Shown piece after piece: positions 1 to 22,679 of a stretch of DNA of 64,000 nucleotides. Location: the NCBI GenBank assembly GCA_001776935.1, contig MFDN01000001.1:101449-165448 (forward strand). The letters run 5' to 3'. Positions within the stretch are counted from its first letter, which is position 1; each line of letters starts with the position of its first letter. The position numbers and the translations under genes were made by a program. Origin of the DNA: Candidatus Daviesbacteria bacterium RIFCSPLOWO2_01_FULL_39_23 (GTDB lineage Bacteria; Patescibacteriota; Microgenomatia; Daviesbacterales; UBA10151). The notes beneath the pieces were generated by a model. That model saw nothing but the letters and a program-made list of their open reading frames with translations. It did not search any database and had not been told where the DNA came from.

Positions 1-1407
1 GTAAGTTTTTTAGGTGCTTTCATATTTATGTATCTTTTAGTATCTAAACTCTTTGGCAAAATGGGCGGATTAATTTCTGCCCTTTTTTATAGTTTTGCGC
101 CTTATCACGCTCTGGATTTCTACGTTAGGGGAGCAATGGGTGAAATGTGGGCGCTTATGTTATTCCCGGCTGTTTTTTGGGCAATCCTCAAGCTAGAAGA
201 AAAACCCAATTTAACTCACCTCTTGCTGCTTGGAGTATTTAGCGGATTTTTCTTAATTTCTCATAATTTATCGGTAATGATTTTCTTGCCAGTACTTCTG
301 ATTTGGATTATTTTGTTATTCTGGAAACAGAGAAACCTAAAATTCCTTTGGTATACATCTTTTGCATTTTTAATAGGCTTAACATTATCCGCTTTTTATA
401 TTTTGCCAATGATTATTGAGAAGAATTTAGTTCATGTAGATTCCACAACTTCAGGATATTTTTCGTATACAGAGCATTTTAAAGGATTTAAAAAACTATT
501 TTTGGAAAGAACGTGGGGATATGGTGCATCCGTAAGAGAAGTTCCGGGTGGAGAAAGGGACGGATTGTCTTATCAAATAGGGTGGTTGCATCTTTTGGGA
601 TGGCTTATTGCAATAATATCGGCAAAAACTTTATGGAGGAAAAATAAGTGGTTAAGCGTGGTGATTATATCTTTTTCCTTTTTAACCTTATTTGCCATAT
701 TTATGGTTAATCCAAGATCGCAAGCTGTTTGGGATGCAATTGAGCCGTTAAAATACTTACAATTTCCATGGCGCTTTCTTGTTTTAATAACCTTTTTTAT
801 TCCGTTTATGCTAGGAAGTTTTTCTCTCCTGCATTTTAGAGGTAAAAATTTACTTTTCGGGTCTTTAGTTTTAATGGTAGTTGTTTTGAACTTTTCCTAT
901 TTCAGGCCGGAAAAGTTTATTCAAACTGATGACGAAAAACTTTTAATGGGTGATAATTGGGAAAGACAAATAAAAAGATCAATTTTTGATTTTCTTCCTA
1001 TATTTGCCAAAGAACCCCCGGCAGAACTTGCAGAAAGAAGGTATCAAATTCTAACTGGTGATAGTGATGTTTTTGATTTTACCGAAGGGACAAATTCGAT
1101 TTCTTTTAAGACAGATACCCGCACACATACTATTATTCGTCTTTCCCAATATTATTTCCCAGATTGGAAAATATATGTAGATGGTGTTGAAACTAAGGTG
1201 GAGTACAAAAATAATAGCTTGGGTCTTATGACATTTATTTTGGGAAAAGGGAATCACGAGATTTCTGCAAGGCTTTATGATACTCCTATTAGGTCGTTTG
1301 CGAATTTATTGACTCTTGGAGGCTTTGTGTTTAGTGCAGTACTGTTTTTGAGTTCTTTTAGCAGAGTCCGAAAATGGTTCCGTTATTACAGAGAAAGAAT
1401 GAGTTAA
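1..1407 (+). CDS. Polytopic membrane protein, 5'-partial (the reading frame is open to the window edge); possibly a GT-C/YfhO-like glycosyltransferase
   Basis: Long ORF with many hydrophobic helices followed by a C-terminal soluble region. No stop codon lies between position 1 and the first ATG at 28. The family is not recognisable with confidence. Confidence 0.5.
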   Translation, partial: VSFLGAFIFMYLLVSKLFGKMGGLISALFYSFAPYHALDFYVRGAMGEMWALMLFPAVFWAILKLEEKPNLTHLLLLGVFSGFFLISHNLSVMIFLPVLLIWIILLFWKQRNLKFLWYTSFAFLIGLTLSAFYILPMIIEKNLVHVDSTTSGYFSYTEHFKGFKKLFLERTWGYGASVREVPGGERDGLSYQIGWLHLLGWLIAIISAKTLWRKNKWLSVVIISFSFLTLFAIFMVNPRSQAVWDAIEPLKYLQFPWRFLVLITFFIPFMLGSFSLLHFRGKNLLFGSLVLMVVVLNFSYFRPEKFIQTDDEKLLMGDNWERQIKRSIFDFLPIFAKEPPAELAERRYQILTGDSDVFDFTEGTNSISFKTDTRTHTIIRLSQYYFPDWKIYVDGVETKVEYKNNSLGLMTFILGKGNHEISARLYDTPIRSFANLLTLGGFVFSAVLFLSSFSRVRKWFRYYRERMS

Positions 1408-1413
1408 GTAAAT

Positions 1414-2892
1414 ATGAATGAAAGAGTTGAGCCAATAGATCCAACCCAGGAGTTTACTGCAGATGTTATAAAAAAAAGAGCAGTCAAAGGTGCAGCAATA
1501 TTAACAGGAAGAAATGTTTTAATTCAGGTTGTCTCTTTTTTTTCTACAGCCTTATTGACTATTTTTCTTGCTCCTTCCGAATTTGGTGTGTTTTTTTTGG
1601 TCTCAGCTGTAAAAAACTTTTTGGCTTATTTTAGCGATATCGGTTTTGCAGCAGCATTAATTCAAAAAAGAGAGAAATTAGAAGCTGTAGAGTTAAAAAC
1701 AGTCTTTACAGTGCAACAGGCGTTAATTGTTTTGTTGCTTATTGTGGTTTTTATATCTACGCCTTTAATTAAAAATATTTATAATTTAGATCAGAAAGCA
1801 GTTTATTTGCTTTGGGCACTTACTTTTTCTTTGCTTTTCTCCTCGCTTAAAACCATCCCCTCAGTTTTGATGGAAAGAAAATTGGAGTTTAATAAATGGG
1901 TAATTCCTCAAATTATTGAGACAATTGTTTTTAATTTGACGGCGGTTTATTTGGCTTGGAGAGGATTTGGTATAACAAGTTACACTGTCGCGGTATTGTT
2001 ATCCGGGCTTTTGGGACTTGTGATAACTTATATTGTGCAACCCTGGTTTCCCAGATTTGCATTTTCTCTTAAAGCTTTTAAATCGGTATTGAAATTTGGT
2101 GTTCCCTATCAGGTTAATACTCTTCTTGCGATGATAAAAGATGATGGTATGACTCTGTTTTTGGGGGTAATAATCGGTCCGCAAGGAGTGGGGCTTTTGG
2201 GGTGGGCGCAAAAGTGGGCATATGCACCATTACGGTTTTTTATGGATCAGGTGATAAAAGTTACATTCCCTGCATTTTCCAGGCTGCAGGATGATAAGGC
2301 TGCTTTGTCGGATTTAGTGACAAAATCGATATTTTTTGTATGCCTTCTAGTTTTTCCCGCTTTAGTTATACTTGTATTAGTGGCGCCGATTTTAGTGCAG
2401 ATTATTCCCAAATATATTAAATGGAGTCCTGCCCTGTTTGCGCTTTCTATTTTGGCGCTTACTTCTGCTCTTGCAGCTATTACTACACCTTTAACTAACA
2501 CTCTAAATGCAATAGGCAAGATATATTTAACTTTTAAGCTAATGATTATGTGGACTTTTCTTACCTGGGCTTTTGTCCCTCTTTTTGCTTATTTTTTTGG
2601 TTTAAATGGAGCCGCAATTGGATTTACCCTTGTGGGGTTAAGTTCTTTTGTTGCATTGCGTTTGGTTTCTAAACATGTTGATATAAACTACAAAAGAAGC
2701 GTTGGAAAGCCGTTGCTTGCCTCAATCGTAATGGGGGTTTTGGTATTCCTGACAGGAGGGTTGTTGCCAGCATCATTTCAACAAGTAATTATAATGATTG
2801 TCTTAGGTTTTGTCATTTATCTTTTCACAATTTTTGCCCTTGAACCAAATCTAAAAACCTTAATTATCAATCAAATGAAAAAAAGACAATGA
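1414..2892 (+). CDS. Wzx-like oligosaccharide/polysaccharide flippase (MOP superfamily polysaccharide biosynthesis protein)
   Basis: 492 aa with about 12-14 predicted TM helices and an N-terminal basic stretch before TM1, which is the typical Wzx/PST architecture. It sits 6 nt after the previous gene. Confidence 0.6.
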   Translation: MNERVEPIDPTQEFTADVIKKRAVKGAAILTGRNVLIQVVSFFSTALLTIFLAPSEFGVFFLVSAVKNFLAYFSDIGFAAALIQKREKLEAVELKTVFTVQQALIVLLLIVVFISTPLIKNIYNLDQKAVYLLWALTFSLLFSSLKTIPSVLMERKLEFNKWVIPQIIETIVFNLTAVYLAWRGFGITSYTVAVLLSGLLGLVITYIVQPWFPRFAFSLKAFKSVLKFGVPYQVNTLLAMIKDDGMTLFLGVIIGPQGVGLLGWAQKWAYAPLRFFMDQVIKVTFPAFSRLQDDKAALSDLVTKSIFFVCLLVFPALVILVLVAPILVQIIPKYIKWSPALFALSILALTSALAAITTPLTNTLNAIGKIYLTFKLMIMWTFLTWAFVPLFAYFFGLNGAAIGFTLVGLSSFVALRLVSKHVDINYKRSVGKPLLASIVMGVLVFLTGGLLPASFQQVIIMIVLGFVIYLFTIFALEPNLKTLIINQMKKRQ

Positions 2893-5800
2893 AAAAAATA
2901 CTCTTGCTCTTTTTGCTATTACTGGTGCCTATTCTTTTTGTTCCTTCTGCTTTCGCTCAAAATAAATCATTTATCTCAATAATAAATCCCATAAGAGGTC
3001 AGGATTTTTGGGATATAAAAGAGCAAAAACCAGAGACGGCAGTAGCAGGGCAAATTACCATTTTGAATAATTTCAATTTAGTAGCTACCTGGCTACTGCG
3101 GTTTGATGCTCTTGATGATAAAAATATTATTAATATTTTAAACGAAAGGCCGAAGGATGAGAAAGGGTTGTTTTTAGAAATTACTCCAACCTGGACAACG
3201 CAGGCTAAAATCGAATACCGGAAATCCGACAGCTGGCATGCAGCTGGAAGTGCTTTTTTAACAGGTTACGAGCTAAATGAGCGGAAAAAACTGATAGATG
3301 CAGCTTTTGAGAAATTTGAAAATACCTTTGGATATTATCCATCTTCAGTTGGAGCTTGGTGGATAGACAGCTATTCTTTAAGTTATATGCAGGAAAAGTA
3401 TGCAGTATCCTCGGCGTTGATTGTTTCTGATCAATACTCAACAGACAATTATCAAATTTGGGGACAATATTTTTCAACACCATACTATCCTGCCAAAAAT
3501 AATGCTCTTCACCCTGCGAAAAGTTTAGAGAATAAACTTGATGTTGTAATGGTGCAGTGGGCACAGAGAGACCCTGTAAACAGCTATGGCAATGGAGTAA
3601 CAGAAAGCACGTATAGCGTGCAGGCAAATGATTATATGGACTATCACAGTCTAGGTGTAGATTACTTTTCAAAACTTATTGATATTTATACAAAACAAAA
3701 GTTTAATCGGTTTAACCATTTGGTAGTAGGCCTTGAAAACTCCTATGAATGGAATAAATATTTGGGAGAATATAAGAACCAAATTGAGGTTTTGAGGAAG
3801 AAGAGTGATTCTGGTCAGTTAGCTGTAGTTTCCATGAAAGATTTTGCCTCTTGGTATAAATCAGCTTTTCGGGAACTTTCTCCAAAGCAGTTAATTGTGG
3901 CAGATGATCCCCTAGGCTCTTTTAAGAAAGTTGTTTGGTTTATGAATCCATATTATCGAGCTGGATGGTTTTATAATACTGATGGAAGTGTGTTTAGGGA
4001 TATCAGGCAATATATAGAAGGAGAAGAAGAAATTTGTTTCAAAAAAAGCTGCAAAGAAGTTAATTTTGCAACTTTTGCTACACGAGTTTTAGATGAGGTA
4101 AGTTTTGGACATAAATGGATAATAGATGAGGGTAAAATTTCTGAATTTGAAGTTTCTGAAAAAGATGATAGTTTCGTCCTAAGCTATGTAAATGAGGCAG
4201 GGAAGGATAGAGAAATTGAATTTTTGCCCCGAGATTTGCGTGTAAACGGGAAGGTTTCTTCAATAGATGGGGCGATTCTTGACGCTATAAAACAGGATAC
4301 CTTAATTTCAAAAGAGAAAAAAGAATTTCCCGATAAAGAATTTAATTGGACTATTAGTGGTGTTTTATCTAAGACAATTAGATTTTTATTATTTTTAATA
4401 TTTATTTGTGTGGTACCGGGGTTTGTCGTAACTAATAAGTTATTGGAGAAAAATGATTCTACTTTGCGCAGGATATTTTTAGCCTTGACGGTTGGCGGTG
4501 TTTTATTGACTATAATTTTTTATATAACAAGTCTTTTGAATTTGAGATTTTTGATCTTTGTCTATATTTTTACCGCTTTATTGCTCTTTTTTAGGATGCA
4601 AAGGTCTAGTTTTTCTAAAATTAAATTAGGGAAAAATTGGGATAAATTAAATATAATAACAATGCTTATTGTTATATCTGGGTCGCTTTTTCAAAATATC
4701 CCCAGTTTTAAAAACGGTTTAGTATTCTCGTTTGGAATGGGGCTTTGGGGACCTAATACACACGATGGAATCTGGCATATAAGTTTAATTAATCAGTTGC
4801 TTCGGGGAATACCTGTTGAAAATCCTATCTATGCCGGTACCATTCTAAAAAATTATCACTTTTTCTATGACTTGTTGATTGCAGCGACAGCTTATTTTAC
4901 TAAAATTCCCATTATAGATTTAGTTTTTAGATTTTATCCTGTACTTTTTTCTTTGTTTTTAGGCATAGGTTCTTATCACCTGGTGATGAAGCTTTTCTTG
5001 GGCAGGATGGGAGTTGTAAAGACAAAAGTTGCCGCAATATTAAGTTTATTTTTCATCTACTTTGCAGGAAGCTTTGGATGGATTGCAGAATATTTGCGGG
5101 GAAAAACTTTTGGTGGTGAATCTGCATTTTGGGCTAATCAATCAATTTCATTTAATTTAAATCCGCCTTTTGCAATCTCACTAATTATTATTATTGCCTT
5201 TTTAAACCTTTTGTTAAACAGAAAAACAATGGGAAGCCGGATGGGAATTTTTGTATCAACACTATTATTAGGAAGCTTAGTGGGATTTAAAGCGTATGCT
5301 GCTGTTTTGGCAATATCTTCACTACTTTTTATATCTCTTATAAATATATTTAAGAAGGAATATTCATATCTTTTGATTTCCGCATTTTCGTTATTTTTTT
5401 CTTTTTTTGTGTTTCTGTTTAATTTTCAATCTAATGCGCAACTTATGATTTTTTCTCCGTTTTGGTTGATTCATTCGATGATTGATTCACCGGATCGGGT
5501 AGGATGGACTAAGCTGTCAATTGCAAGAATAGCTGGTTTAGAAACGAAAAATTGGTTTAAATTTCTCTCTGTGGAAGCTATAAGTCTATTAATATTTATT
5601 GCCGGGAACTTAGGCGTAAGGATTTTAAGTCTGGGGTCACTAGTAAAAATAAAAGATATAGTTAAAGATAATAATCTTCTGTTTATTTTAGTATTTACGA
5701 TTTTATCTTTTTTGATACCGATATTTTTTATCCAATCAGGAAACCCCTGGAATGTAATCCAATTTTCTTATTACGGTCTTTATGTAACGGCTCTTGCTAC

Positions 5801-6341
5801 TGGTCCGATTTTAGCTTATTTAATTTTTAGGTTGCCTAAATTATTATCTTTTTTAATAATACTTGGGGTCTTGGTATTAACACCAATTAATTCAGTTACT
5901 ACTGCTACCTACTATTTAGGATTTTTACCTCATGGCAGAATCGATAACAAAGAATTAGAAGCCTTGAATTTTCTATTTAAGCAGGAATACGGGACTGTGT
6001 TGACTTATCCTTATGATAGGAGATTACAGCAAAAAATATCGGAACCTTGGCCTCTGTTTGCCTATGATAGTACTGCTTATGTAGCAGCTTTATCAGGCAA
6101 AGCAGTTTTTTTGGAAGATGAAGGGCAAAATCAGATTCTTTTAACTGATTATAAAAGAAGGCTTATTGCTGCTAAAGATTTTTTTCAAAGCAATTTTCTT
6201 GATGGGAATACGTTCTTGGAGAATAATAAAATTAAATATATTTATATTCCAAAAGCTTTCAAGATTCGCATGGAAGGTTCGTCATTAAGTGTTAAAAATA
6301 TTTTTGAAAATGATGAGGTGATAATTTACAGTGTAATCTAA
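2889..6341 (+). CDS. Large envelope protein of unassigned 'family B': signal peptide, an extracytoplasmic domain of about 480 aa, a polytopic membrane domain and a conserved C-terminal tail
   Basis: 1150 aa. The N-terminus MKKILLLFLLLLVPILFVPSAFA is a signal peptide. The membrane domain carries GxWGPNTHDGIWHISLINQL...AGTILKNYHFFYDLL, shared with the next two genes. A 4-nt ATGA overlap links it to the flippase gene. Confidence 0.6.
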   Translation: MKKILLLFLLLLVPILFVPSAFAQNKSFISIINPIRGQDFWDIKEQKPETAVAGQITILNNFNLVATWLLRFDALDDKNIINILNERPKDEKGLFLEITPTWTTQAKIEYRKSDSWHAAGSAFLTGYELNERKKLIDAAFEKFENTFGYYPSSVGAWWIDSYSLSYMQEKYAVSSALIVSDQYSTDNYQIWGQYFSTPYYPAKNNALHPAKSLENKLDVVMVQWAQRDPVNSYGNGVTESTYSVQANDYMDYHSLGVDYFSKLIDIYTKQKFNRFNHLVVGLENSYEWNKYLGEYKNQIEVLRKKSDSGQLAVVSMKDFASWYKSAFRELSPKQLIVADDPLGSFKKVVWFMNPYYRAGWFYNTDGSVFRDIRQYIEGEEEICFKKSCKEVNFATFATRVLDEVSFGHKWIIDEGKISEFEVSEKDDSFVLSYVNEAGKDREIEFLPRDLRVNGKVSSIDGAILDAIKQDTLISKEKKEFPDKEFNWTISGVLSKTIRFLLFLIFICVVPGFVVTNKLLEKNDSTLRRIFLALTVGGVLLTIIFYITSLLNLRFLIFVYIFTALLLFFRMQRSSFSKIKLGKNWDKLNIITMLIVISGSLFQNIPSFKNGLVFSFGMGLWGPNTHDGIWHISLINQLLRGIPVENPIYAGTILKNYHFFYDLLIAATAYFTKIPIIDLVFRFYPVLFSLFLGIGSYHLVMKLFLGRMGVVKTKVAAILSLFFIYFAGSFGWIAEYLRGKTFGGESAFWANQSISFNLNPPFAISLIIIIAFLNLLLNRKTMGSRMGIFVSTLLLGSLVGFKAYAAVLAISSLLFISLINIFKKEYSYLLISAFSLFFSFFVFLFNFQSNAQLMIFSPFWLIHSMIDSPDRVGWTKLSIARIAGLETKNWFKFLSVEAISLLIFIAGNLGVRILSLGSLVKIKDIVKDNNLLFILVFTILSFLIPIFFIQSGNPWNVIQFSYYGLYVTALATGPILAYLIFRLPKLLSFLIILGVLVLTPINSVTTATYYLGFLPHGRIDNKELEALNFLFKQEYGTVLTYPYDRRLQQKISEPWPLFAYDSTAYVAALSGKAVFLEDEGQNQILLTDYKRRLIAAKDFFQSNFLDGNTFLENNKIKYIYIPKAFKIRMEGSSLSVKNIFENDEVIIYSVI

Positions 6342-8347
6342 TGTTAGCCATTCTTTTTCTAAATCTTTTTATATTTATTTTTTTAGTATTTTTAACTATT
6401 TTCCTGCCCGGTTTGCTATTTTTGTCAAAGGTATATAGAAAAATAAATAAAGTTGAAATTATTTCACTCTCTTTTTGTTTAGGAATTGTTTTATTTGTAG
6501 GTTTAGGAATTATTTTGGGGTTTATTCATTTAAGATTTTTATTATTGCCTACCCTATTAATATTGGGGTTTTTATCCATAATAAAATTTAGGAAATTTGC
6601 CTTTTCTGTGTGGACAAGCTTTAGGACAGATAAGCTTTTGCTTTTGATTATCTTGGCCGGTATTTTAATGCAGGGATTCATTAGCTTCCCGAGCGGGTAT
6701 CATTATAAGGAAGGGTTGCTATTTTGGAGTTCTCAGGGGTTTGATGGTTTTTGGCATATTTCTATAATGGAGGAAATAAAAAAAGAATTTCCGCCCCAGA
6801 TTCCTACTTTTGCAGGAGAGAAATTGGTAAACTATCATTTTCTTTCCGATATTTTGATGGGAGAATTTGCTAGGATTTTTTCTTTTTTTTCATCATTGGA
6901 TTTATATTTTAGGTTTTTCCCGGTGTTATTTTCCTTCCTGATGGGTATTAGTGTGTTTGCTTTTGTCCAGAAATGGCAAAATAGAAAGATCGCTTACTGG
7001 GCGCTAATTTTTACCTATTTTACAGGCAGTTTCGGATATGTTATTACCTTTCTAAGAAACGGACAATTATTTGGGGGCGAAACCGTTTTTTGGGCTGCCC
7101 AACTAAATACAGTGATTGCGAATCCGCCGCACGCAGTTGCCATTAGTCTTTTGCTTTCTTTTTTATTATCTCTCTTGCTTTTTTTTGAGGAAAGAAAAAA
7201 AATTTGGTTTTTTATTACAATTGTTTGCGCCTTAATGATTGCTGGTTTTAAGGTGTCTGCGGGTGTAGTTCTTTTGGCAGGTTTAGGTGCCGCTGCTTTG
7301 GTTGATCTTATTGTGAACCGAAAGCTGGATTTATTCTATTTACTTATTACTCTTGGGGTATCAAATTTTGCCGTTATAAAATTTATGACTAAAGGAGTGG
7401 GGGAATATTTAATTTGGGAACCTTGGTGGTTTATTAGAACAATGGTGGTAGCCAAATTGGATTGGATGGATTTGGAGTTAAGGAGGCAGCACTATGCATC
7501 AAAGGGAACGTGGCATTCCTGGCTTAGGGTTTTACAGATAGAAATAATGGCTTTTTCCATATTTTTGGTTGGGAATCTAGGAATGAGAGTAATTGGATTT
7601 ATAGAAATATTTAAAAAAATATTATTAAAAAAACAATGGCTTTATAATAAACCTTTTGAAGCAGGCATTTTGGCGATGATGCTCACTGGCTTTATAATCC
7701 CACTATTTTTTCTGCAAAAGGGGATTGCGTACAATACCGTTCAGTTTATGCAATATTTTTTGCTGTTTTTTGGTTTTTACGGCGCTATTGCAACGGAGAA
7801 AATAAGTGAGCAAATAAAAAATAAGCTGTTTAGGTTCCTCTTTGTAATACTTGTGATTATTCTTTCTGTACCGACAGTGATTGGCAATCTTGTAGAATTT
7901 TACGGACCGGGGAAAACACCTTTGGCAAAGATTTCAAATGAAGAGATGGAGGCATTGCAATTCTTAAGGACTCATTCGGAGGAAGATGACATAATCCTGA
8001 ACCCATCTTTTGATAAATCCTTAAAGGATAGATACAATTCCCAGCCTTTTCCTATATATGCCTGGTACAGTACCGGGTACATCTCCGGTCTTACAGGACG
8101 AAGGACGTATCTTTCATTAGAAGAAATGGTGATCCAGACAGGATTTGATTATGAAGGACGAGTTTTAAAAGTAAATAGTTTTTTTGAAAAAAATGATACT
8201 TTAGCCAATAGAAAATTGCTTAAGGAAGAAGGGATTAGTTTTGTGTATATTCCGAAGGATCAATTAAAGGCGCAACTGGATTTAAAACAAAATTACCTGG
8301 ATCTTATTTTTGAAAACTCAGAAGTAATAATTTACAAAGTAATTTAA
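6341..8347 (+). CDS. Polytopic membrane protein, 'family B' paralog 2 (putative GT-C-like glycosyltransferase or polymerase)
   Basis: 668 aa. It contains SQGFDGFWHISIMEEIKKEFPPQIPTFAGEKLVNYHF, WEPWWFIRTM, and a C-terminal YIPK...NSEVIIYKVI tail shared with paralogs 1 and 3. A TAATG overlap links it to the upstream gene. Confidence 0.6.
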   Translation: MLAILFLNLFIFIFLVFLTIFLPGLLFLSKVYRKINKVEIISLSFCLGIVLFVGLGIILGFIHLRFLLLPTLLILGFLSIIKFRKFAFSVWTSFRTDKLLLLIILAGILMQGFISFPSGYHYKEGLLFWSSQGFDGFWHISIMEEIKKEFPPQIPTFAGEKLVNYHFLSDILMGEFARIFSFFSSLDLYFRFFPVLFSFLMGISVFAFVQKWQNRKIAYWALIFTYFTGSFGYVITFLRNGQLFGGETVFWAAQLNTVIANPPHAVAISLLLSFLLSLLLFFEERKKIWFFITIVCALMIAGFKVSAGVVLLAGLGAAALVDLIVNRKLDLFYLLITLGVSNFAVIKFMTKGVGEYLIWEPWWFIRTMVVAKLDWMDLELRRQHYASKGTWHSWLRVLQIEIMAFSIFLVGNLGMRVIGFIEIFKKILLKKQWLYNKPFEAGILAMMLTGFIIPLFFLQKGIAYNTVQFMQYFLLFFGFYGAIATEKISEQIKNKLFRFLFVILVIILSVPTVIGNLVEFYGPGKTPLAKISNEEMEALQFLRTHSEEDDIILNPSFDKSLKDRYNSQPFPIYAWYSTGYISGLTGRRTYLSLEEMVIQTGFDYEGRVLKVNSFFEKNDTLANRKLLKEEGISFVYIPKDQLKAQLDLKQNYLDLIFENSEVIIYKVI

Positions 8348-10443
8348 TTTACTTTCCAGATTTCTATACTGTTGTTATCAAATAACTTTAAGAAATCTGT
8401 TTTATTAAGGTCTAATTTTGGTCTTAATATTTTTGGAAAATATATGTAATTTATTCCTATTTCTTTTAAAGTTTTATCTAAATTATGCGGATTTTCTATA
8501 TCAATAAAAATTTTTCTTTCCATTTCTAATCTTTTATTTAAATCATAACCCATGATATCAACCTGCTCTGTGTCTGCAATATAAGTTCTTCTTGCAGAAA
8601 ATGCAGATACGTAAGCTGTGTCAAACCAAGCCCAAATAGGAGGTGTAGCAATATTAAGGTTTAGATATTTATCATGTGGTGGAGTAAGAATGACGGTGTT
8701 ATTATCAGTCTTAAGCTTTAGGAAATTTAATGCCTCTATTTCGTCCGAAGTAATTTTTGCAAGAGGAGGTTTATGGTAGAAATCGTAAAGCAGGCCGATT
8801 TGCGTAGGAACGGAAAGCGCTACGATAATAACTATAAAAAGTATCTTTAGGATTTTTAATTTTATTTTATTTTGAATCAGTGAAACAGTAAGCGCAGCTA
8901 AAATTCCGAAAAGCAGCAGGAAGTACTGCAAGAATTGACTTGTATTTCCAGCCACACCTTTTTGTAAAAATAATAAGGGTAAGATTAAAGAAATTATGAT
9001 AATAAATATAATTAACTGAAATAAGTAATTGTTTGATGACTTTTTCAGCAGTTTAACAAGGTGTATAAGGCCTAAAAATTTGGTTCCCAAATTTCCCAAA
9101 AAGAAAATTAAGAATCCGGTTGTTTCTATTTGTAAAACTCTTTTCCAATTTCCCTCAGCGATATATGTTTGCCTTTTAAGTTCCAAATCCAGCCAATTTA
9201 ATCGAGAGGGCGCAACTATCATAGTCCTAATAAACCACCAGGGTTCCCAAATTAAAAATGAGGCGGAATTTTGGGTGTTGGGAATATACAAAATAGCAGA
9301 AAGTAAACTGCTTAAAGCAAACAAGGAAAAAACATTAAATTTCTTTTCCCTAATTATTTGTATTAACCCTACAATGCCCAAGCCGATCAAAATAACCAGA
9401 GCTGCATATACTTTAAATACGGCTAATGTGCCTGCGACTATGAAGCATAGCAGGAATATAACTACATCTTTTTTTGAAAGATAAATATAAAATAAATACA
9501 AAAATAACATAACTAAAATGTTAGAAATAATTTGAGGTGGATTGCCGATAGAGCTTTGAATTTGAGTTGCCCAAAATATACTTTCGCCTCCTATGCTTTG
9601 GTTTTTTATCCATGTTGCGATATAACCAAAACTCCCTGCAAAGTATACAAAAAAGACAGACCAGACACCGCTTGAGTAAGATCCTCCCAATTTTTTTCCT
9701 AACAAGTAAGCTATTGATCCAAGTAACACAGAAAAAATAAAAGGAAAAAATCTAAAATATAAGTCTAAGTTAGAAAATTGGAAGAACTTACTAAATTGGG
9801 CAGGAGCTATATCTGAAAAGAAATGATAATTAACTAATTTTTCTCCTGCAAAAGCAGGATTTTGAAGTGGGTAGCCTTTTTTAATCTCCTCCATTAAGGC
9901 AATATGCCATGCTCCGTCGTGACCATTTGAACTCCAAAAAACTAAATCTTTATTAAAATATGTACCGCTTGGCGCAATCACTGCCATCTGACCGGTTATG
10001 CCCAGTATAAAGACAAAAAATAAAAAAATAAGCTGCTTTTTGGGAAGCAGATCTAAATTTATTCTAAAACCGGAATACCGTGCCGCCTTTTGATCTGAGA
10101 TTTCAGGATCGAAGACTTGTTGCGGTGGTGAATGTTTCAGAGAAGAACTTGCTCGAAGGGATACCCCGCAGTCTGCTGCAGAGTAGTTCATTTTCGATCG
10201 GAATATATTTTTTGTGCAGAATAAACTCATGAGTCCGAATATTGGTATAAGAAGAAAAGAAGCGTTTATTATCAACAGGCCATAAGCCATAAGAGTAAAT
10301 AATACAAATCCAATGATAGTGCCTATTGTAATTTTTTCAAAAAATGTAAGCATTATCTTACTCCTTTGCAAAAGTAAAATCCCGGGCAAGGTAAAAAATA
10401 TCAAAGTAAATAATAAGAAAAGAGTTGGGTATGCAAAGGCCAT
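8344..10443 (-). CDS. Polytopic membrane protein, 'family B' paralog 3
   Basis: 699 aa. It contains SSNGHDGAWHIALMEEIKKGYPLQNPAFAGEKLVNYHFFSD and WEPWWFIRTM, and has the same C-terminal tail type. It lies tail-to-tail with paralog 2 and shares stop codons with it (TTAA). It also carries a compositionally odd insertion of about 55 aa after TM2. Confidence 0.6.
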   Translation of the reverse strand: MAFAYPTLFLLFTLIFFTLPGILLLQRSKIMLTFFEKITIGTIIGFVLFTLMAYGLLIINASFLLIPIFGLMSLFCTKNIFRSKMNYSAADCGVSLRASSSLKHSPPQQVFDPEISDQKAARYSGFRINLDLLPKKQLIFLFFVFILGITGQMAVIAPSGTYFNKDLVFWSSNGHDGAWHIALMEEIKKGYPLQNPAFAGEKLVNYHFFSDIAPAQFSKFFQFSNLDLYFRFFPFIFSVLLGSIAYLLGKKLGGSYSSGVWSVFFVYFAGSFGYIATWIKNQSIGGESIFWATQIQSSIGNPPQIISNILVMLFLYLFYIYLSKKDVVIFLLCFIVAGTLAVFKVYAALVILIGLGIVGLIQIIREKKFNVFSLFALSSLLSAILYIPNTQNSASFLIWEPWWFIRTMIVAPSRLNWLDLELKRQTYIAEGNWKRVLQIETTGFLIFFLGNLGTKFLGLIHLVKLLKKSSNNYLFQLIIFIIIISLILPLLFLQKGVAGNTSQFLQYFLLLFGILAALTVSLIQNKIKLKILKILFIVIIVALSVPTQIGLLYDFYHKPPLAKITSDEIEALNFLKLKTDNNTVILTPPHDKYLNLNIATPPIWAWFDTAYVSAFSARRTYIADTEQVDIMGYDLNKRLEMERKIFIDIENPHNLDKTLKEIGINYIYFPKILRPKLDLNKTDFLKLFDNNSIEIWKVN

Positions 10444-10509: not shown

Positions 10510-12255
10510 ATGAAGATGAAAAGATTATTTAAGAATGTGCAATCAATGGTGGATAAGAGAGGATTAATATTATCGCTTATTTTATTAGTGTCGTCATTTT
10601 TGAGAGTTTGGAGTCTTGATTTGGTTCCGGTATCATTATTTGGGGACGAGATTGATGTAGGCTATCATGCTTATTCAATTTTAAAAACAGGTAAAGATTA
10701 TTCGGGTAATTTTTTACCCATTCATTTTGAGTCATTAGCAGAGCACAGAACAGCTTTTTTCCCTTATTCTGCAGTACCAACTGTTGCATTATTTGGAATT
10801 TCGGCTTGGGGCGTAAGGCTTCCGGTTGCTATTTTTGGAGTACTGGGTATTTTGGCTTTTTATTTGTTGGTTAAAGAAATAACGAAAAATGAAAAATTAG
10901 GATTATTGGGAGCAGTTTTGCTTGGCATTTCCCCATGGCATATTCATTTTTCCCGGGTCGGTTTTGACGGACCGCAAATGCTTTTCCTATTCACAATAGG
11001 AATTTATTTTTTGCTAACCTCTTTGAGGGGTAAAAATACCCTATGGTTATCCGCAATCTTTCTTGCACTTACTCCGTGGGCTTATAACACGGCTAAATTA
11101 TTTCTTCCTTTAACGATTTTGGCAATTTTGATTATTTGGCGCAATGAACTGATGAAGATACCCCGAAGCCGATTGTTGACTGCCATAATAGTATTTACCA
11201 TAATTTCTCTACCATTTGCGCTTAGCACCCTTTTTGGCGGAGGTTCAGAGAGATTTCAGGGAATATCGATATTCAATGATCCAACCGTTGTACCTCAGAT
11301 GGGCTTTGACAGACAAAATGACTTAAAGGTAAGGGGTAGTAGTAGTTTCTTGCCTTCTATTGCTGATAAGCTATTTCATAATAAACTTACTGCATACTCA
11401 AAAATTTTTACCGATAATTATTTTCAATCTTTTTCTACCCAATTCTTTTTTATAAAAGGGGATGCTCTTAATCCCAGGCAATCTTCCGGTTTTGAGTTTT
11501 TTAAAATCCAATCTATCTTTATGATTGTGGGATTAGTTTTTTTAATAATTTCTCAATTAGATAAGAAGGTCAAAGTCTTTATAATCTTCTGGGTTCTGGC
11601 AGCGCCGATACCTTCTGCTTTGACACAAGGAGGAGGGGATCACGCTACAAGGTTAATTTTAATGCTGCCTGTCTTGGTTATTTTTATTACGTTTGGAATC
11701 TATTACATATATTTCAAAGTTAACAGAAAATTTAAAATCTTTTATATTCTTATTGTTTTAATAAGTTTACTATTAAGTTTTATTTTTTATCAGCATGATT
11801 ATTGGGTGCATTACCCTTGGAAGTCTGAAAGATGGTGGCATGCCGGATATAAAGAGGCAGTAACTTCAGCAGTAAGGAAAGGAGCCGATTACGAGCGGGT
11901 TATTATCAGTTCTGCGGATGAGCCATCGCTAATATTTTTCTTAGGTTGGTCTATGTATCCACCTGAGATTTTTCAATATGAATATAGTTCATATTTATCC
12001 AAAAACAAGAATGCTAATTCAACCTTAAATTTGGGCAAATATATATTCCCTCCCATAGGACAAGGGATAAATCTTTATGAAATGGGTTCAAAATTACCTG
12101 AAAATACTCTTTATCTGGCAACTGCAAAAGAGATTAATTTAAATCTAATTAAAGAACCGGGTAGGGTCCCGTCGGATATACTTTTGATTGATGCAATTTC
12201 ATATCCCTCAGGAGAACCTGCTTTTTACTTATTTGCCAAAAATGAGAAAAATTAA
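10510..12255 (+). CDS. PMT/ArnT-superfamily GT-C glycosyltransferase (PMT_2/GT39-like), paralog a
   Basis: 581 aa. It has the loop-1 motif LFGDEIDVGYHAYSILKTGKDYSG (a DE motif), SPWHIHFSRVGFDG, and a C-terminal soluble domain with W.HAGYKEAV. Confidence 0.65.
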   Translation: MKMKRLFKNVQSMVDKRGLILSLILLVSSFLRVWSLDLVPVSLFGDEIDVGYHAYSILKTGKDYSGNFLPIHFESLAEHRTAFFPYSAVPTVALFGISAWGVRLPVAIFGVLGILAFYLLVKEITKNEKLGLLGAVLLGISPWHIHFSRVGFDGPQMLFLFTIGIYFLLTSLRGKNTLWLSAIFLALTPWAYNTAKLFLPLTILAILIIWRNELMKIPRSRLLTAIIVFTIISLPFALSTLFGGGSERFQGISIFNDPTVVPQMGFDRQNDLKVRGSSSFLPSIADKLFHNKLTAYSKIFTDNYFQSFSTQFFFIKGDALNPRQSSGFEFFKIQSIFMIVGLVFLIISQLDKKVKVFIIFWVLAAPIPSALTQGGGDHATRLILMLPVLVIFITFGIYYIYFKVNRKFKIFYILIVLISLLLSFIFYQHDYWVHYPWKSERWWHAGYKEAVTSAVRKGADYERVIISSADEPSLIFFLGWSMYPPEIFQYEYSSYLSKNKNANSTLNLGKYIFPPIGQGINLYEMGSKLPENTLYLATAKEINLNLIKEPGRVPSDILLIDAISYPSGEPAFYLFAKNEKN

Positions 12256-13402
12256 ACAGTATTGTTTCATTATTTTTCTTCTTTCTGTTTTTTGGTTACT
12301 TGTAACATATATACAAAATGTCATATTTCCTGTTCGTTTTCTGCCGCATAACTTCTTCATTTTAGAATTATTAGACAAAAGAGTGGAATTGTTGCCTGGG
12401 TTGCTGTTGATGATGGGGGCGGGCAATATAATTCTATTATGGCTTATTAGCAAGCGATTTTTTTCTTCCCCTTACTATTTTCTCCCTTCGATAATTTATG
12501 CTTTATCACCATGGAGCAGCTATTTGATAGCTGCAGGATCTTTCTATATTTACTTATTATTTTTATTACTCATAATATTCTACGGGTTAATTCTGTTGAA
12601 ATCTGGATGCAGGTTTTGGGGAACAATATTAACAGCAGTCGTAACGGCAATAACTTTGTACAGTTCTTTTTTCCTATTTGTTATCCTACCTGTCTCTTTT
12701 ACAGGGATAGTGATTCTTAAGGTAATCTCTTTTAAAGAATTTAAAAACACAATTATCTTACTTATAATTTTAACCTTTCCTTTATTAATTTATATCTCTG
12801 GAAATTATCCGGGCTTAAGAAATATTTTTTTTAGTGAAATTAATGTAATTTCTGACCCCGGCCTTTTGAATGCTGTTAATAAATACCAAGGTGCTGCCAG
12901 AAGTAAGGGCTTAGGCGGCCTGGCTAAAATCTCAGAGAATAAGTACATATTTTTAACGGAATATCTCTTTTTAAAATATGCAAAGTCTTTTGTTCCTGCA
13001 ACCTACTTTACCCCTGCAGAAAAACTTTTAAATTTCTCATTCAGTCCCCCAATATATTTAGGTTTTCTGATACCCTTTTTATACGGTCTTTACAAATTCT
13101 TGAACCCTTCGATTTTAAGGAAGATATTATTGTTATCAACAGTACTTGTTATTCCTTCGGTATTGGCCAAACCCTTGGTTGATTTAAATCGCCTGGTTCT
13201 TTTTGCACCTGTTGTAATTTTTGTTATTTCTTATGGATATGTCAAAATGATTGAGCAAAAAGAGAAGACAAAATTCTTAATTCTATTGTCGATAGTTATC
13301 ATCGTATTTCAGTTGTTTGTTACCTTTTTTGATATTCAAGCAAGAGAAAGAGATAGGTTTGTAAAATACTTCGATCAAAATTATCAAATAGGTAAACAAT
13401 GA
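12242..13402 (+). CDS. Small polytopic membrane protein, a possible partner of the adjacent PMT-like genes
   Basis: Two TM bundles are separated by a soluble loop. The start is taken at the internal ATG (MRKIKQ), giving a 14-nt overlap with the upstream gene. The six-frame ORF track begins at 12188. Confidence 0.5.
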   Translation: MRKIKQYCFIIFLLSVFWLLVTYIQNVIFPVRFLPHNFFILELLDKRVELLPGLLLMMGAGNIILLWLISKRFFSSPYYFLPSIIYALSPWSSYLIAAGSFYIYLLFLLLIIFYGLILLKSGCRFWGTILTAVVTAITLYSSFFLFVILPVSFTGIVILKVISFKEFKNTIILLIILTFPLLIYISGNYPGLRNIFFSEINVISDPGLLNAVNKYQGAARSKGLGGLAKISENKYIFLTEYLFLKYAKSFVPATYFTPAEKLLNFSFSPPIYLGFLIPFLYGLYKFLNPSILRKILLLSTVLVIPSVLAKPLVDLNRLVLFAPVVIFVISYGYVKMIEQKEKTKFLILLSIVIIVFQLFVTFFDIQARERDRFVKYFDQNYQIGKQ

Positions 13403-15036
13403 ACAGATTAAAAATATTTAAAAATAAAATTCTTTTATTGATTGTTCTGTTCACACTTTTGGGTGGATTCTTCAGATTCTATATGAATACCGACAATCCG
13501 CCCAGTCTAAATATTGATGAGATATCTTATGGATATAGTGCTTATTCAATTTTAAAAACAGGTAAAGACGAAAACGGAATTTTTATGCCTTTGGTTTTTA
13601 AATCCATAGGAGATTATAAAAACCCTGTTTTAATTTATTCCCTTGTACCGTCCATTGCTATATTTGGACTGAATGAATTTGGAGTAAGGTTTACAACAGC
13701 TTTAGCAGGTACCTTATCCATTCCGGTTTTTTTTCTTCTTCTTAGGACTTTACTCAATAATACACGTATTGCCTTCATAGGCGGTATTTTGCTTTCAGTT
13801 TCTCCTTGGCATATTTATTATTCGCGCTACGCATCAGAGAGCCTTATAGCAACTTTTCTTTTAATGCTGGGAATTTGGTTTTTTTTGAAGATATTCGGGG
13901 GGGAAAAATGGTGGACGGTAGGTGCATCCCTAGCACTAACGTTATCGTTATACACATATCATTCCCATAGGTTATTCATTCCATTGTTTTTAATTTTTGT
14001 GATTTTTGCAAAAATTAAGCTTTTAAGGTCGGTAAAATCAAGCATGTATATATTTATAATTATGACTTTTCTACTAATCATCCCATTGATTATTCTAGTA
14101 ATAATTGGTCCGGCTAATACCAGAGCTAAAATGGTTTTTCTTTCTTTGGATATCGATTTTACAAGATATGTGATACTTGATCACCTGCACAAGCAGGGTG
14201 AGAATTTTCTCCTTTTATTTTTTTGGGTAAAGAGATATCTGAATTATTTCCAACCGGATTTCCTATTTTTTTCAGGATTGAATATGACATTGCCAGGTTC
14301 AATAGGTCTGGGGGTGTTATTCCTTTTTGAACTACCGTGGTTTGTTTTAGGAATTATCAAATTGATTAAAGATAAGATACCAGCCAAATTGATCATTGTT
14401 GCCTGGACTTTATTTGGACTCTTACCAGCTTCCCTTACAAATAATGAGCAGAGCACGGTTAGGAGTCTTTTGGTTCTGCCGGCTTTATTAACAGTTACGG
14501 CACTTGGTGCAGATTTTTTCATTCATTTGGTTTTCTCCATAAGAAACTTATATTTAAGAATTGGCACAATATTAACTTACTCAATTTTTATTGCAGTTTT
14601 GTTAATTCATGCGTTTTTGGTTTTTGTTGTGCATTTCCCCATACAAAGAGGAGAAGATTTTATGGAAGGCACAAAGCAGACAGTAGAGTATGCGCTTTCT
14701 CAAAAAAAGCAATATAAAGAAATCATTTTTGATCCTTACAGGGGAATAGAAGCTCCCTATATAGTGAGCATTCCTCATATGTACATTCTCTTCTATTCGC
14801 AATACGATCCTGCTATTTATCAACAAGAGCAAAAAACTCGGCCGGATGGTTCTTTTGGTTTTGATAATTTTACCGTTCGGAAAATTGATTGGAGGGTAGA
14901 CAAATCTAAAGAAAACACTTTATTTATAGGTAGCCCTTGGAGTTTACCGGAAAACGAACTAAGAGAGGGAGAAATATTGAAAAAGGTGTATCTTGTAAAC
15001 GGAGGCTTGGCATTTTTAATAGTATCCCCAAAGTGA
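13399..15036 (+). CDS. PMT/ArnT-superfamily GT-C glycosyltransferase, paralog b
   Basis: 545 aa. It contains LNIDEISYGYSAYSILKTGKDENG and SPWHIYYSRYASE. An ATGA overlap links it to the upstream gene. Confidence 0.65.
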   Translation: MNRLKIFKNKILLLIVLFTLLGGFFRFYMNTDNPPSLNIDEISYGYSAYSILKTGKDENGIFMPLVFKSIGDYKNPVLIYSLVPSIAIFGLNEFGVRFTTALAGTLSIPVFFLLLRTLLNNTRIAFIGGILLSVSPWHIYYSRYASESLIATFLLMLGIWFFLKIFGGEKWWTVGASLALTLSLYTYHSHRLFIPLFLIFVIFAKIKLLRSVKSSMYIFIIMTFLLIIPLIILVIIGPANTRAKMVFLSLDIDFTRYVILDHLHKQGENFLLLFFWVKRYLNYFQPDFLFFSGLNMTLPGSIGLGVLFLFELPWFVLGIIKLIKDKIPAKLIIVAWTLFGLLPASLTNNEQSTVRSLLVLPALLTVTALGADFFIHLVFSIRNLYLRIGTILTYSIFIAVLLIHAFLVFVVHFPIQRGEDFMEGTKQTVEYALSQKKQYKEIIFDPYRGIEAPYIVSIPHMYILFYSQYDPAIYQQEQKTRPDGSFGFDNFTVRKIDWRVDKSKENTLFIGSPWSLPENELREGEILKKVYLVNGGLAFLIVSPK

Positions 15037-21032: not shown

Positions 21033-22679
21033 TTATGGGGCGCATTTTAGTTGGGGATTAGTGCTATAGCCGTAAAGAATGGTTTTCCCTAGTAGGTCTT
21101 TAAATTCATAGCTTAAGGTAAATGCATGGTCTTTGGCTTGATCTTTTGATAAAGTTGCATCATCAGTAACTATTATTTCATTTGCACATTGATCAATATC
21201 CCATCTGATATTTCTTATATCAATATTATCGATCTTTCTATATTTATTAAAGTCTACATTGGTGTAATAGTTTCTCAACACTTGGGGGTTTGTCTGTTTT
21301 TGTAGTTGGTAGGGCTCGGTTTTCTTATATGTCGCCATTAGAATATAAGGGGCATCATAGATTTCCGTATCTAAAACAAAAGATTGGTCCTTTAATTTTT
21401 CACTAAGATTTGCAACTTCTAAATAAGGATATCCAAATGAGGAAGATCGTTCGCTTTTAAATATAATAAAATATGACATATACAACATTAGGCAAGATAT
21501 CAAACCTAGAAAGATTCCTAAACTATATTTAATGAGCTTAAGATGAAAGATTTGTAATAAATTGAATAATCCAAAACTAATCAAAATGCTAATACCCCAA
21601 AGCGTAGGTAACATTCTTAATGTATAAAAAGGGTCGCCTGTTAAAGCAGCAGGCAAAGATCCAAAAGCTATGCACAGGAAAATAAGTTTAATAACGCTAT
21701 CAGTGCGATTATAGTAAACATATTTAATTCCTAAAAAGAACGGAATAATCATCCAAAAATAAAATACACTCATATCAGGCATTGATCTAAATGATTGGTT
21801 TTCCGCCTCGAAAAATAAACTTCTGGGTGAGTATGAAGATATATATTGTGAGGAAAACTTATTAAGTATATATAGGCTTCTGCCAAAAACGAGAATTTTC
21901 TTAAAGGTTCCTCCATATTTTTCAAATGTTTGTTTTTGGGTAAACCCTTGTGTATTAAATCTTTGCAGTGACCCGGGGGTTGTTAAAAGTAAAAGTTGTG
22001 GCAGGGAAATAAGGAAGAAAATTATTATTCCAATGAAAATAATTTTTTTATTCTTGATGAAGTTTTTTTTAAAAACAATGATAATTAATATTAGAAAAAC
22101 AAAGGATAAAACCCTTTCTGCGTGGTACGCATATGCGGAGAATGCTAAAGTCGCAGTGGCCGGAATAAAGAAAATAATTCTTTTAATAGATAAAATAAAA
22201 AAGAACATGCTTGTTGCAAATATAATCAAAGCAAAATTTGCCTCGACCGCCACTCTGCTTTGAAAGATGGCCCAAGGTGATAGGCTTAGTACCAAAGCAG
22301 ATAGAATGGCTAAAGAGGAGTTGTGTCTAATTTTCGACCTTTTAAGGATTAAATAGGTGATTAACACTAAAAACGTTCCTGATAGAGCTGATAAGAAGCG
22401 TATAGAAAATATATTCAGTCCGAATAATGCTATTGGGATAGTAGTGAAATAGGCATACAAAGCAGGCTTAAAGTCTCCAAATGATCTTAAAAAAATAGGG
22501 AAAGGCTGACCATATTCATCTTTGCCGGTATTTAAAAGTGAATAAGCATTATAACCAAGCGAGGCTTCGTCAACGTAAAGTCCGGCAGGAATATTATCCA
22601 AAGATACAAATCTAAGAAAGACTGACAGTAGCAAAATGATACAAATAGGCACTATTTCTTTAAAGAGCTTTTTTGACAT
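21033..22679 (-). CDS. PMT/ArnT-superfamily GT-C glycosyltransferase, paralog d
   Basis: LYVDEASLGYNAYSLLNTGKDEYG and SPWAIFQSRVAVE. Confidence 0.65.
   Translation of the reverse strand: MSKKLFKEIVPICIILLLSVFLRFVSLDNIPAGLYVDEASLGYNAYSLLNTGKDEYGQPFPIFLRSFGDFKPALYAYFTTIPIALFGLNIFSIRFLSALSGTFLVLITYLILKRSKIRHNSSLAILSALVLSLSPWAIFQSRVAVEANFALIIFATSMFFFILSIKRIIFFIPATATLAFSAYAYHAERVLSFVFLILIIIVFKKNFIKNKKIIFIGIIIFFLISLPQLLLLTTPGSLQRFNTQGFTQKQTFEKYGGTFKKILVFGRSLYILNKFSSQYISSYSPRSLFFEAENQSFRSMPDMSVFYFWMIIPFFLGIKYVYYNRTDSVIKLIFLCIAFGSLPAALTGDPFYTLRMLPTLWGISILISFGLFNLLQIFHLKLIKYSLGIFLGLISCLMLYMSYFIIFKSERSSSFGYPYLEVANLSEKLKDQSFVLDTEIYDAPYILMATYKKTEPYQLQKQTNPQVLRNYYTNVDFNKYRKIDNIDIRNIRWDIDQCANEIIVTDDATLSKDQAKDHAFTLSYEFKDLLGKTILYGYSTNPQLKCAP

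Follow-up and report, generated by a model that had tools for sequence, protein, structure and literature searches.

A 64,000-nucleotide stretch of contig MFDN01000001.1 from Candidatus Daviesbacteria bacterium RIFCSPLOWO2_01_FULL_39_23, referred to here as the window, encodes three large paralogous membrane proteins, P1, P2 and P3, which together with their relatives are called family B. These proteins represent a glycosyltransferase family of GT-C fold from Microgenomates (Patescibacteria) that has not yet been characterised; the fold is strongly supported, and we infer that the donor is lipid-linked. Family B is thus a new family, with a new domain architecture, within the known GT-C superfamily and not a new kind of system. 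Public databases already contain its sequences under loose automatic names: metagenome-assembled genomes of Candidatus Daviesbacteria include a protein identical to P1 (EKD89951.1, KKR17213.1), the members checked are annotated at NCBI as ‘hypothetical protein’, and the automatic UniRef name is ‘Glycosyltransferase RgtA/B/C/D-like domain-containing protein’. The family is large (∼1,800 clusters at 50% identity) and has no Pfam or NCBIfam model. Microgenomates and other bacteria of the Candidate Phyla Radiation (CPR) are uncultured and have tiny genomes, yet they carry long islands for surface glycosylation. Residue numbers below follow P2 unless said otherwise.

Paralogy and fold of the membrane core

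P1 (1150 residues; 2889-6341, plus strand) is encoded directly after a Wzx/MOP-family lipid-linked-oligosaccharide flippase (1414-2892, plus strand; Polysacc_synt_3 1.8e-52, NCBIfam MOP flippase 1.3e-45, NCBIfam O-glycosylation flippase 1.4e-31) and is followed by P2 (668 residues; 6341-8347, plus strand). The Wzx and P1 genes share an ATGA overlap (2889-2892) and the P1 and P2 genes a TAATG overlap (6339-6343), and with these junctions Wzx, P1 and P2 look translationally coupled. P3 (699 residues; 8344-10443, minus strand) converges on P2. An earlier note on this DNA, made from the letters alone, had described three paralogous open reading frames (ORFs), the second and third lying tail to tail, and both points hold: P2 shares 42% identity with P3 over 572 residues (E 3e-134) and 32% with residues 602-1150 of P1 (E 3e-66), and the stop codons of P2 and P3 overlap at 8344-8347. 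No fourth copy was found in the window by tblastn with each module.

Structurally, P2 was modelled by AlphaFold2 from an alignment of 40 sequences with high confidence (predicted local distance difference test, pLDDT, 90.3; predicted TM-score, pTM, 0.91), and the Foldseek comparison of the model with the PDB, from which 50 matches were listed, points in a single direction. The top 28 matches are all GT-C enzymes, with probabilities of at least 0.97. Archaeal AglB (7e9s) is the best of them (E 3.3e-8), followed by human and yeast STT3, bacterial PglB and DPY19 at about 1e-7; matches to AglB, STT3, PglB and DPY19 span 3e-8 to 1e-6 at probability 1.0. Further matches comprise ALG12, AftD, AftA, ALG9, Pmt4, EmbC and AftB. 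The non-GT-C proteins among the 50 listed, unrelated transporters included, have probabilities of at most 0.25, and no WaaL, SEDS or Wzy-type structure is listed. Family B therefore very probably consists of GT-C glycosyltransferases. That its members might instead be envelope transporters or scaffolds, in which the GT-C resemblance survives as a relic of the fold, is scarcely credible: the sole argument for it is that no member has a demonstrated activity, whereas members of ∼25% identity have D135, H166, K304 and Q468 in common and these invariant residues gather at helix ends and in loops predicted to lie outside, as an active site would, the confident structural neighbours are all enzymes, and the genes form part of an operon for glycan synthesis.

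The core comprises ∼11 helices, preceded by three helices that are regarded as an optional N-terminal extension because many family members start at profile position ∼100. In P2 (plus strand), the three-transmembrane-helix extension is encoded at 6341-6631, the GT-C core at 6632-7906 and a C-terminal domain at 7907-8344. The membrane part of P1, delimited by alignment and BLASTP (residues 485-1010 of P1; 4341-5918, plus strand), likewise has three extra helices ahead of its GT-C core, and its first membrane helix lies near P1 residue 488. The order of the helices and the K/R-rich loops 29-36 and 83-97, predicted to be cytoplasmic, together give a predicted outside position for the N-terminus, the two long loops and the C-terminal domain, in agreement with the signal-peptide-led domain of P1. 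With an odd number of extra helices, P1 could carry a secreted N-terminal domain without inverting the core. P3 differs from its paralogs at residues ∼84-135 (P3 numbering), where a Ser/Pro/Gln-rich insert of ∼35-50 residues (...NYSAADCGVSLRASSSLKHSPPQQVFDPEISDQKAARYSG...) is found in the loop, predicted to be cytoplasmic, that joins the N-terminal helix extension to the GT-C core. The insert is missing from P1 and P2.

Conserved residues and relationship to known glycosyltransferases

The sequence motifs that the earlier note had listed as shared are all present in P1-P3, with small corrections to their letters. The first reads THDGIWH in P1 (DGIWH, 4764-4778, plus strand), GFDGFWH in P2 (DGFWH, 6743-6757, plus strand, containing D135 in the first outer loop) and GHDGAWH in P3 (DGAWH, 9904-9918, minus strand), so that the residue before the Asp in P2 is F and not H. 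The second is (Y/F)AG(T/E)(I/K)L(K/V)NYHF, whose NYHF is encoded at 4851-4862 (plus strand) in P1 and 9820-9831 (minus strand) in P3. The motif around K304 is FKVSA in P2 (7247-7261, plus strand), with FKAYA in P1 (5286-5300, plus strand) and FKVYA in P3 (9403-9417, minus strand). EPWWFIRTM occurs in P2 and P3 (9220-9246, minus strand, in the latter) and corresponds to SPFWLIHSM in P1 (5454-5480, plus strand), which also has a GGES motif at 5112-5123 (plus strand).

Conservation was assessed over 79 diverse family-B members, taken as representatives of 50%-identity clusters (effective number of sequences in the profile, 5.3). Six residues are invariant in all 79: D135, Y165, H166, K304, G411 and Q468. 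Another 13 (W138, H139, P155, F250, W251, N261, Y306, P361, W363, N412, Q459, G461 and N465) are conserved in at least 90%, and position 247 is Glu in 67 (85%) and Asp in 7 (9%). K304 is the sole invariant basic residue. In the P2 model, D135-H139 fall in the first helix of the long loop that follows helix 98-112, Y165 and H166 lie just before the second helix of the same loop, and K304 starts a later helix. P361 and W363 belong to a second, flexible outer loop (PxW; pLDDT 67-82) four helices before the C-terminal domain, and the next helices are linked by a short loop, Q459-Q468. A trait of GT-C enzymes is a conserved acidic residue in the first of their long outer loops, and D135 supplies it in every member, its place in that loop being predicted. 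D135, H139, H166 and K304 are thereby defined as candidate active-site residues.

The closest structural relatives, the GT66 enzymes AglB, PglB and STT3 (PF02516), are laid out like family B: the polytopic core has a long first outer loop with an acidic residue and, four helices from the end, a second outer loop that is flexible, and the last helix leads into an alpha/beta domain outside the cytoplasm. These likenesses, with a possible resemblance of the C-terminal domain to that of AglB (3vu0) and the association with a Wzx-type flippase, are what speak for true N-oligosaccharyltransferases, that is, GT66 orthologs diverged past sequence recognition. Unlike the GT66 enzymes, however, family B has no sequence relationship to this family, no WWDYG, no DxD and no invariant Arg, and it adds three N-terminal helices (N-out), a DUF3863-like fusion in one subfamily and, usually, a second paralog next door. 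The WWDYG of GT66 enzymes, which sits in their C-terminal domain and binds the Ser/Thr of the sequon, has no counterpart: WWD[YWF]G and even WWD are found in 0 of the 79 sequences. Neither P1-P3 nor 40 relatives matched PF02516 at E≤1, and searches of PDB sequences at E≤10 with profiles of 3, 40 and 79 sequences returned chance matches only (DltD, AdcA, at the C-terminal domain) and no oligosaccharyltransferase (OST). An OST-type site for a divalent metal combines DxD in loop 1, a second acidic motif and TIXE/SVSE in loop 5; in place of DxD, family B has a single invariant Asp in DGxWH (the following residue is G, A or S) and the conserved H139 and H166. The conserved motif of the C-terminal domain, P-x-x-A-[YW]-x-x-T-x-Y, holds no conserved acidic residue. 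GT66 orthology is accordingly very improbable.

DPY19, a C-mannosyltransferase, gives the top TM-scores of all matches (7zlg, 7zli and 7zlh; TMq 0.46-0.48) and has the GT-C core. Unlike family B, it is eukaryotic, depends on dolichyl-phosphate-mannose and acts on the Trp of WxxW, and the two share no sequence similarity or motifs. DPY19 is not known to have a C-terminal domain comparable to that of family B.

At the level of sequence, the earlier statement that the family maps to no named GT-C, Wzy or ligase family holds. Scans of P1-P3 against Pfam and NCBIfam gave nothing above chance, all matches having E≥0.17 (VKGC_lumenal_dom for P3, an unrelated NCBIfam model for P1). A Pfam scan of 40 relatives at E≤1 found no glycosyltransferase family; its scattered weak matches, the best at 0.017 (HAV_VP, DUF6541, VKGC_lumenal_dom), were judged to be noise. 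PF13231 (PMT_2) had no match at E≤1 in 40 members, while ten other proteins of the window match it at 1e-5 to 1e-12 and an N-terminally cut ORF (28-1407) at 6.7e-5. PF14897 (EpsG) and, over the three proteins and the 40 relatives, PF04932 (Wzy_C/O-antigen ligase) likewise gave no family-B match in the Pfam scans. The counter-evidence named beforehand, a confident match to a well-characterised family, did not arise, and the defining features of OST, PMT and Wzy enzymes were not found in family B. Literature searches yielded no paper on GT-C enzymes in Patescibacteria and nothing relevant on Microgenomates glycosyltransferases or OSTs.

Profile-profile comparison brings out one remote relationship. 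The 79-sequence profile aligns with the window's ten PMT/PMT_2-type paralogs (HHalign probability 95.4%, E 2e-8, 131 columns) over P2 residues 165-324, the region that the PMT_2 Pfam model covers; a shallower, less diverse profile had reached 8.7% and is superseded. K304 is matched in this alignment by a PMT_2 Lys, the one in ‘..NTAK..’ of the window's paralog. PMT_2 enzymes of the ArnT/RgtA type (PF13231; GT39/GT83-like) thus resemble family B in the helices after the first outer loop and in this Lys, and they share its island. They are unlike it in that the window's PMT_2 paralogs keep a D46-E47 ‘DE’ pair where family B has DGxWH, that family B has a C-terminal domain and the N-terminal helix extension, and that only family B is coupled to Wzx.

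The corresponding comparison with Wzy-type polymerases used a 28-sequence EpsG/GT122 profile built from E. coli O104 Wzy, an EpsG/PF14897 protein whose gene is listed as GT122 (PMC10920833). HHalign gave 0.2%, and this relationship was rejected. These polymerases are marked by two conserved Arg together with a conserved Asp and His (PMC10920833). The invariant residues of the GT122 profile are R51, D57, R142, H176 and R292, and its three Arg have no invariant counterpart in family B. On the strength of these two profile comparisons, family B is best placed on the GT-C(A) side (PMT/ArnT/OST), as a very divergent branch, and not with Wzy polymerases of the EpsG kind.

The C-terminal domain and the DUF3863-like fusion of P1

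The conserved C-terminal tail of the earlier note is real (YIYIPK...IFENDEVIIYSV in P1, FVYIPK...IFENSEVIIYKV in P2, YIYFPK...LFDNNSIEIWKV in P3) but is not merely a tail: in the P2 model it forms the last beta-strands of an independent globular domain of ∼140 residues (523-668). In P1 this extracytoplasmic domain spans P1 residues 1011-1150 (5919-6338, plus strand; tblastn with the P2 domain, E 4e-19), and in P3 it is encoded at 8347-8778 (minus strand). Foldseek relates the C-terminal part of P2 to the C-terminal domain of AglB-S2 (3vu0) with probability 1.0 and TMt 0.51-0.54, at E-values of just 0.07-0.17.

P1 alone among the three carries a soluble domain ahead of its membrane part. As the earlier note had proposed, this module is led by what looks like a signal peptide: the first 24 residues of P1 (2889-2960, plus strand) form a signal-peptide-like segment (MKKILLLFLLLLVPILFVPSAFA then Q, ending ...SAFA; hydrophobic over 1-25) whose cleavage is presumed from the sequence, and a soluble domain of ∼460 residues follows (residues 25-484 of P1; 2961-4340, plus strand). 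The AlphaFold2 model of the N-terminal region has a pLDDT of 92 and shows a helix, then a low-confidence linker at 19-23. Its best Foldseek match is 3lm3 (E 6e-15, TM-scores 0.58/0.64, 425 columns), the Joint Center for Structural Genomics structure of BDI_3119, a ‘putative glycoside hydrolase/deacetylase’ and the prototype of DUF3863. The second tier consists of CE4 deacetylases (E 2e-6 to 1e-3) and the catalytic barrels of GH57 and GH38. The fold supports the earlier guess of a glycan-modifying module. Identity to BDI_3119 is only 16%, and P1 falls below all Pfam thresholds: PF12979 does not match P1 itself at E≤1, matches 23 of 40 homologs of the N-terminal domain weakly (best 6.7e-5) and is precomputed for some homologs.

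The CE4 (NodB) deacetylases belong to the same beta/alpha-barrel superfamily as this domain, but the conserved residues differ. Across the 40 homologs, nine acids are invariant (D73, E97, D137, D160, D186, D228, D248, E283 and D402, P1 numbering) and four further Asp/Glu are at least 95% conserved, whereas H117 is the only conserved His and the CE4 Asp-His-His metal triad is not conserved. A literature search found no paper on DUF3863, and the P1 fusion provides a first functional context for it.

The fusion is a recurrent architecture. All 37 members of at least 800 residues among the top 149 representatives carry a P1-type N-terminal domain (24-58% identity). Most homologs of the N-terminal domain occur as stand-alone proteins. 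One stand-alone class of ∼675 residues (P0146-P0240) combines a signal peptide, the DUF3863-like domain, a hydrophobic anchor and the family-B C-terminal domain (∼135 residues), and so equals the P1 fusion minus its GT-C core; its genes sometimes lie near family-B genes (1264-3348, minus strand, in locus L042; 5997-7712, plus strand, in locus L072). Such relatives are thus unlike BDI_3119, and P1 is too, in being membrane-anchored with a family-B C-terminal domain or fused to a GT-C enzyme. A form of ∼500 residues without the anchor or the C-terminal domain is also present. At the other extreme, the representative P0253 (1,639 residues) has a further N-terminal region of ∼490 residues, with the DUF3863-like domain starting at ∼495 and the GT-C core at ∼990.

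The C-terminal domains of family B and of the stand-alone DUF3863-like proteins are homologous (HHalign 92.6%, E 4.5e-7, after the truncated fusion protein P0139 had been filtered out of the stand-alone set). This common, mobile domain argues that GT-C proteins and DUF3863-like proteins may bind the same partner or substrate through it.

Gene neighbourhood and the proposed step

A profile search recovered 1,839 cluster representatives at 50% identity (916 at E≤1e-30), and a scan of reference genomes gave 78 related loci. Those with informative names are all Microgenomates/Patescibacteria (Daviesbacteria, Woesebacteria, Shapirobacteria and Blackburnbacteria). Contig labels such as ‘Gammaproteobacteria’, ‘Pseudomonadales’, ‘Bathyarchaeia archaeon’, ‘Clostridia’ and ‘Spirochaetia’ (among them loci L001, L002, L005-L007, L019, L021 and L027-L029) were not found credible: these contigs come from bulk third-party metagenome-assembled genomes, and the labels were judged to be wrong or placeholders because synteny is identical and Daviesbacteria-like and GC content is 32-42%.

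Genomic neighborhood analysis reveals a recurring order across loci of PMT2-like, Wzx, P1-type, P2/3-type, PMT-like, GT2, GT2 and GT4 genes. Two or three family-B genes occur in 49 of the 78 loci. P1-type genes encode fused (1130-1169 residues) or unfused (542-657 residues) proteins, and in 32 of 38 visible cases a Wzx gene lies directly upstream on the same strand, 31 times within 60 bp. Across the 78 loci, Wzx is never directly upstream of a P2/3-type gene; these genes are most often downstream of a P1-type gene (28 cases). By NCBIfam, the window's Wzx is closest to flippases of diphosphate-linked oligosaccharides, a further point of likeness to the GT66 systems.

The window as a whole is a glycan-synthesis island. 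Besides the Wzx/MOP flippase, it encodes eight GT2 and two GT4 proteins, a PIG-V-like protein, at least 11 PMT/PMT_2-type GT-C proteins (at least 14 GT-C-type membrane transferases in all) and nucleotide-sugar enzymes comprising epimerases/dehydratases, C-methyltransferases, aminotransferases and a UDP-glucose dehydrogenase. Wzy_C, EpsG, LCP, STT3 and initiating phosphoglycosyltransferases were not detected in the 64-kb window. The island seems to depend to a large extent on glycosylation outside the cytoplasm.

Because the P1-type gene looks translationally coupled to Wzx, its product is proposed to act on the Wzx-flipped glycan, as donor or as acceptor, and this is likely. P1-type proteins are accordingly a good candidate for a missing step in the assembly of cell-surface glycans by CPR bacteria, the one at which the flipped glycan is put to use. 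How they would use it is a more tentative matter. En-bloc transfer from a diphosphate-linked donor, in the manner of an OST, is the reading favoured over the addition of single sugars, though it falls short of being probable; what speaks for it is the coupling to Wzx, the identity of the nearest structural neighbours and the presence of the C-terminal domain, together with the fact that no other consumer was detected in the window. On this reading, a surface protein or a wall polymer outside the cytoplasm would receive the whole Wzx-flipped glycan from undecaprenyl diphosphate through the P1-type enzyme, in an OST- or ligase-like step that would not use the N-X-S/T sequon. By analogy with GT-C precedent, D135 may be the catalytic base that activates the nucleophile of the acceptor on the outer side of the membrane, and K304 would bind the phosphate or phosphates of the undecaprenyl-linked donor, possibly with a metal held by D135, H139, H166 and E247. 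The shared C-terminal domain may bind the acceptor or the glycan, and the fused DUF3863-like domain of P1 may trim or modify the same glycan, probably by carboxylate chemistry and not as a CE4 metallo-deacetylase. A neighbouring P2/P3-type paralog would serve the same pathway, as a partner or on a different acceptor.

Several observations weigh against en-bloc transfer. The sole significant sequence-profile link of family B is to PMT_2 and not to OSTs, for which the PF02516, PDB-sequence and WWDYG searches were all negative. No Arg is invariant among the 79 members (R191 is conserved in 58%, R366 in 37%), a pattern that appears to fit a monophosphate donor at least as well. OSTs, which bind diphosphate, typically keep one or two Arg. 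The same is true of the diphosphate-binding WaaL and GT122-124 enzymes (PMC10920833), and among the five GT-C(A) CAZy families, four have lipid-phosphate-monosaccharides as donors (PMC10920833, Table 1). The window also encodes three GT2 proteins like polyprenyl-phosphate-sugar synthases (PpgS-, AglJ/ArnC- and PgfS-like; 33725-34396, 36530-37264 and 60843-61853), and the search for other consumers of the flipped glycan covered the 64-kb window, not the whole genome.

Most of these points are also what recommends the main alternative, a serious one if ranked second: that family B are single-sugar GT-C transferases like PMT, ArnT, GtrC, YfhO and the luminal ALG enzymes, using undecaprenyl-monophosphate-sugar donors to decorate the Wzx-flipped glycan or a finished polymer or protein on the outer face. 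The PMT_2 link, a single invariant basic residue (K304) with no invariant Arg, the donor preference of most GT-C(A) families and the presence of the three synthase-like proteins beside the many PMT_2-type genes in the island all agree with it, as does DPY19, a monosaccharide transferase that matches structurally as well as the OSTs do. On the other hand, the coupled Wzx and P1-type arrangement is not common to the many PMT_2 paralogs, and the best E-values and the extra C-terminal domain favour an OST architecture. Known three-component monosaccharide systems, moreover, use GtrA- or SMR-type flippases and are not known to use Wzx.

The same neighbourhood invites a comparison with Wzy, in which family B, chiefly the P1-type, would join flipped repeat units head-to-tail on undecaprenyl diphosphate and the P2/P3-type would be the ligase. 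Adjacency of wzx and wzy is typical of Wzx/Wzy-dependent clusters such as that of E. coli O104, the island has no detected Wzy_C or EpsG, and two non-redundant paralogs usually lie side by side. EpsG/GT122 proteins (PF14897) are likewise encoded beside Wzx, and in the polymerase clan GT-C3, as in family B, a long loop close to the N-terminus is conserved and includes an Asp and a His that are conserved too (PMC10920833). This equivalence is nonetheless improbable, given the HHalign result of 0.2% and the GT122 signature, which has no counterpart in family B. In addition, the 50 Foldseek matches listed include OST, DPY19, ALG, Aft and PMT structures but none of WaaL, SEDS or Wzy type, and family B is much larger than a typical Wzy (∼370 residues, no C-terminal domain) and has what may be an OST-like C-terminal domain.

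In a more ambitious and rather doubtful proposal, the Wzx-coupled P1-type protein and its P2/P3-type neighbour are the consumer of the flipped undecaprenyl-diphosphate-linked glycan in Microgenomates. They would then form a second GT-C(A) family with no sequence relationship to GT66. It would transfer diphosphate-linked oligosaccharides, or polymerise them, in the absence of WWDYG and with a built-in catalytic domain of DUF3863 fold, replacing the Wzy/WaaL/LCP/OST step of other bacteria and giving DUF3863 its first function. The nature of the donor sets the significance of the family: were it a diphosphate-linked oligosaccharide, family B would rank as a new family at the CAZy level and might become a glycoengineering tool, and with a monophosphate sugar it would be one more divergent GT-C decorating enzyme.

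Other genes of the island merit brief description. PMT/PMT_2-type paralogs are unusually dense at 10510-30688 and 41143-42981, and the PIG-V-like protein is encoded at 32550-33728. A 404-residue multi-helix membrane protein with no family match (12188-13402, plus strand) overlaps and precedes a PMT-type GT-C gene (13399-15036, plus strand); homologs of this pair recur in many related loci (e.g. L004, L009, L012, L013, L032 and L071), which suggests a conserved two-gene unit. A 691-residue polytopic membrane protein (57892-59967, minus strand) has no Pfam or NCBIfam match, a ‘YSDDFFF’ acidic motif after its first helix and a soluble C-terminal region of ∼230 residues. It looks like another unclassified GT-C-like protein; by tblastn it is neither a fourth family-B member nor a stand-alone DUF3863 protein. 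ORFs at 22660-23373, 46893-47930 and 59980-60819 (all minus strand; 237-345 residues) have no Pfam match at E≤0.1, and that at 43732-44532 (minus strand) encodes a DUF5672 protein (5.8e-49). Two sugar C-methyltransferase-type genes (Methyltransf_13/14; 39396-40649 and 45578-46858, both minus strand) adjoin genes for FdtA/cupin-like isomerases, a dTDP-sugar epimerase-like protein, an aminotransferase and a GFO/IDH/MocA oxidoreductase, a hint that the island makes branched or otherwise rare deoxy-amino sugars.

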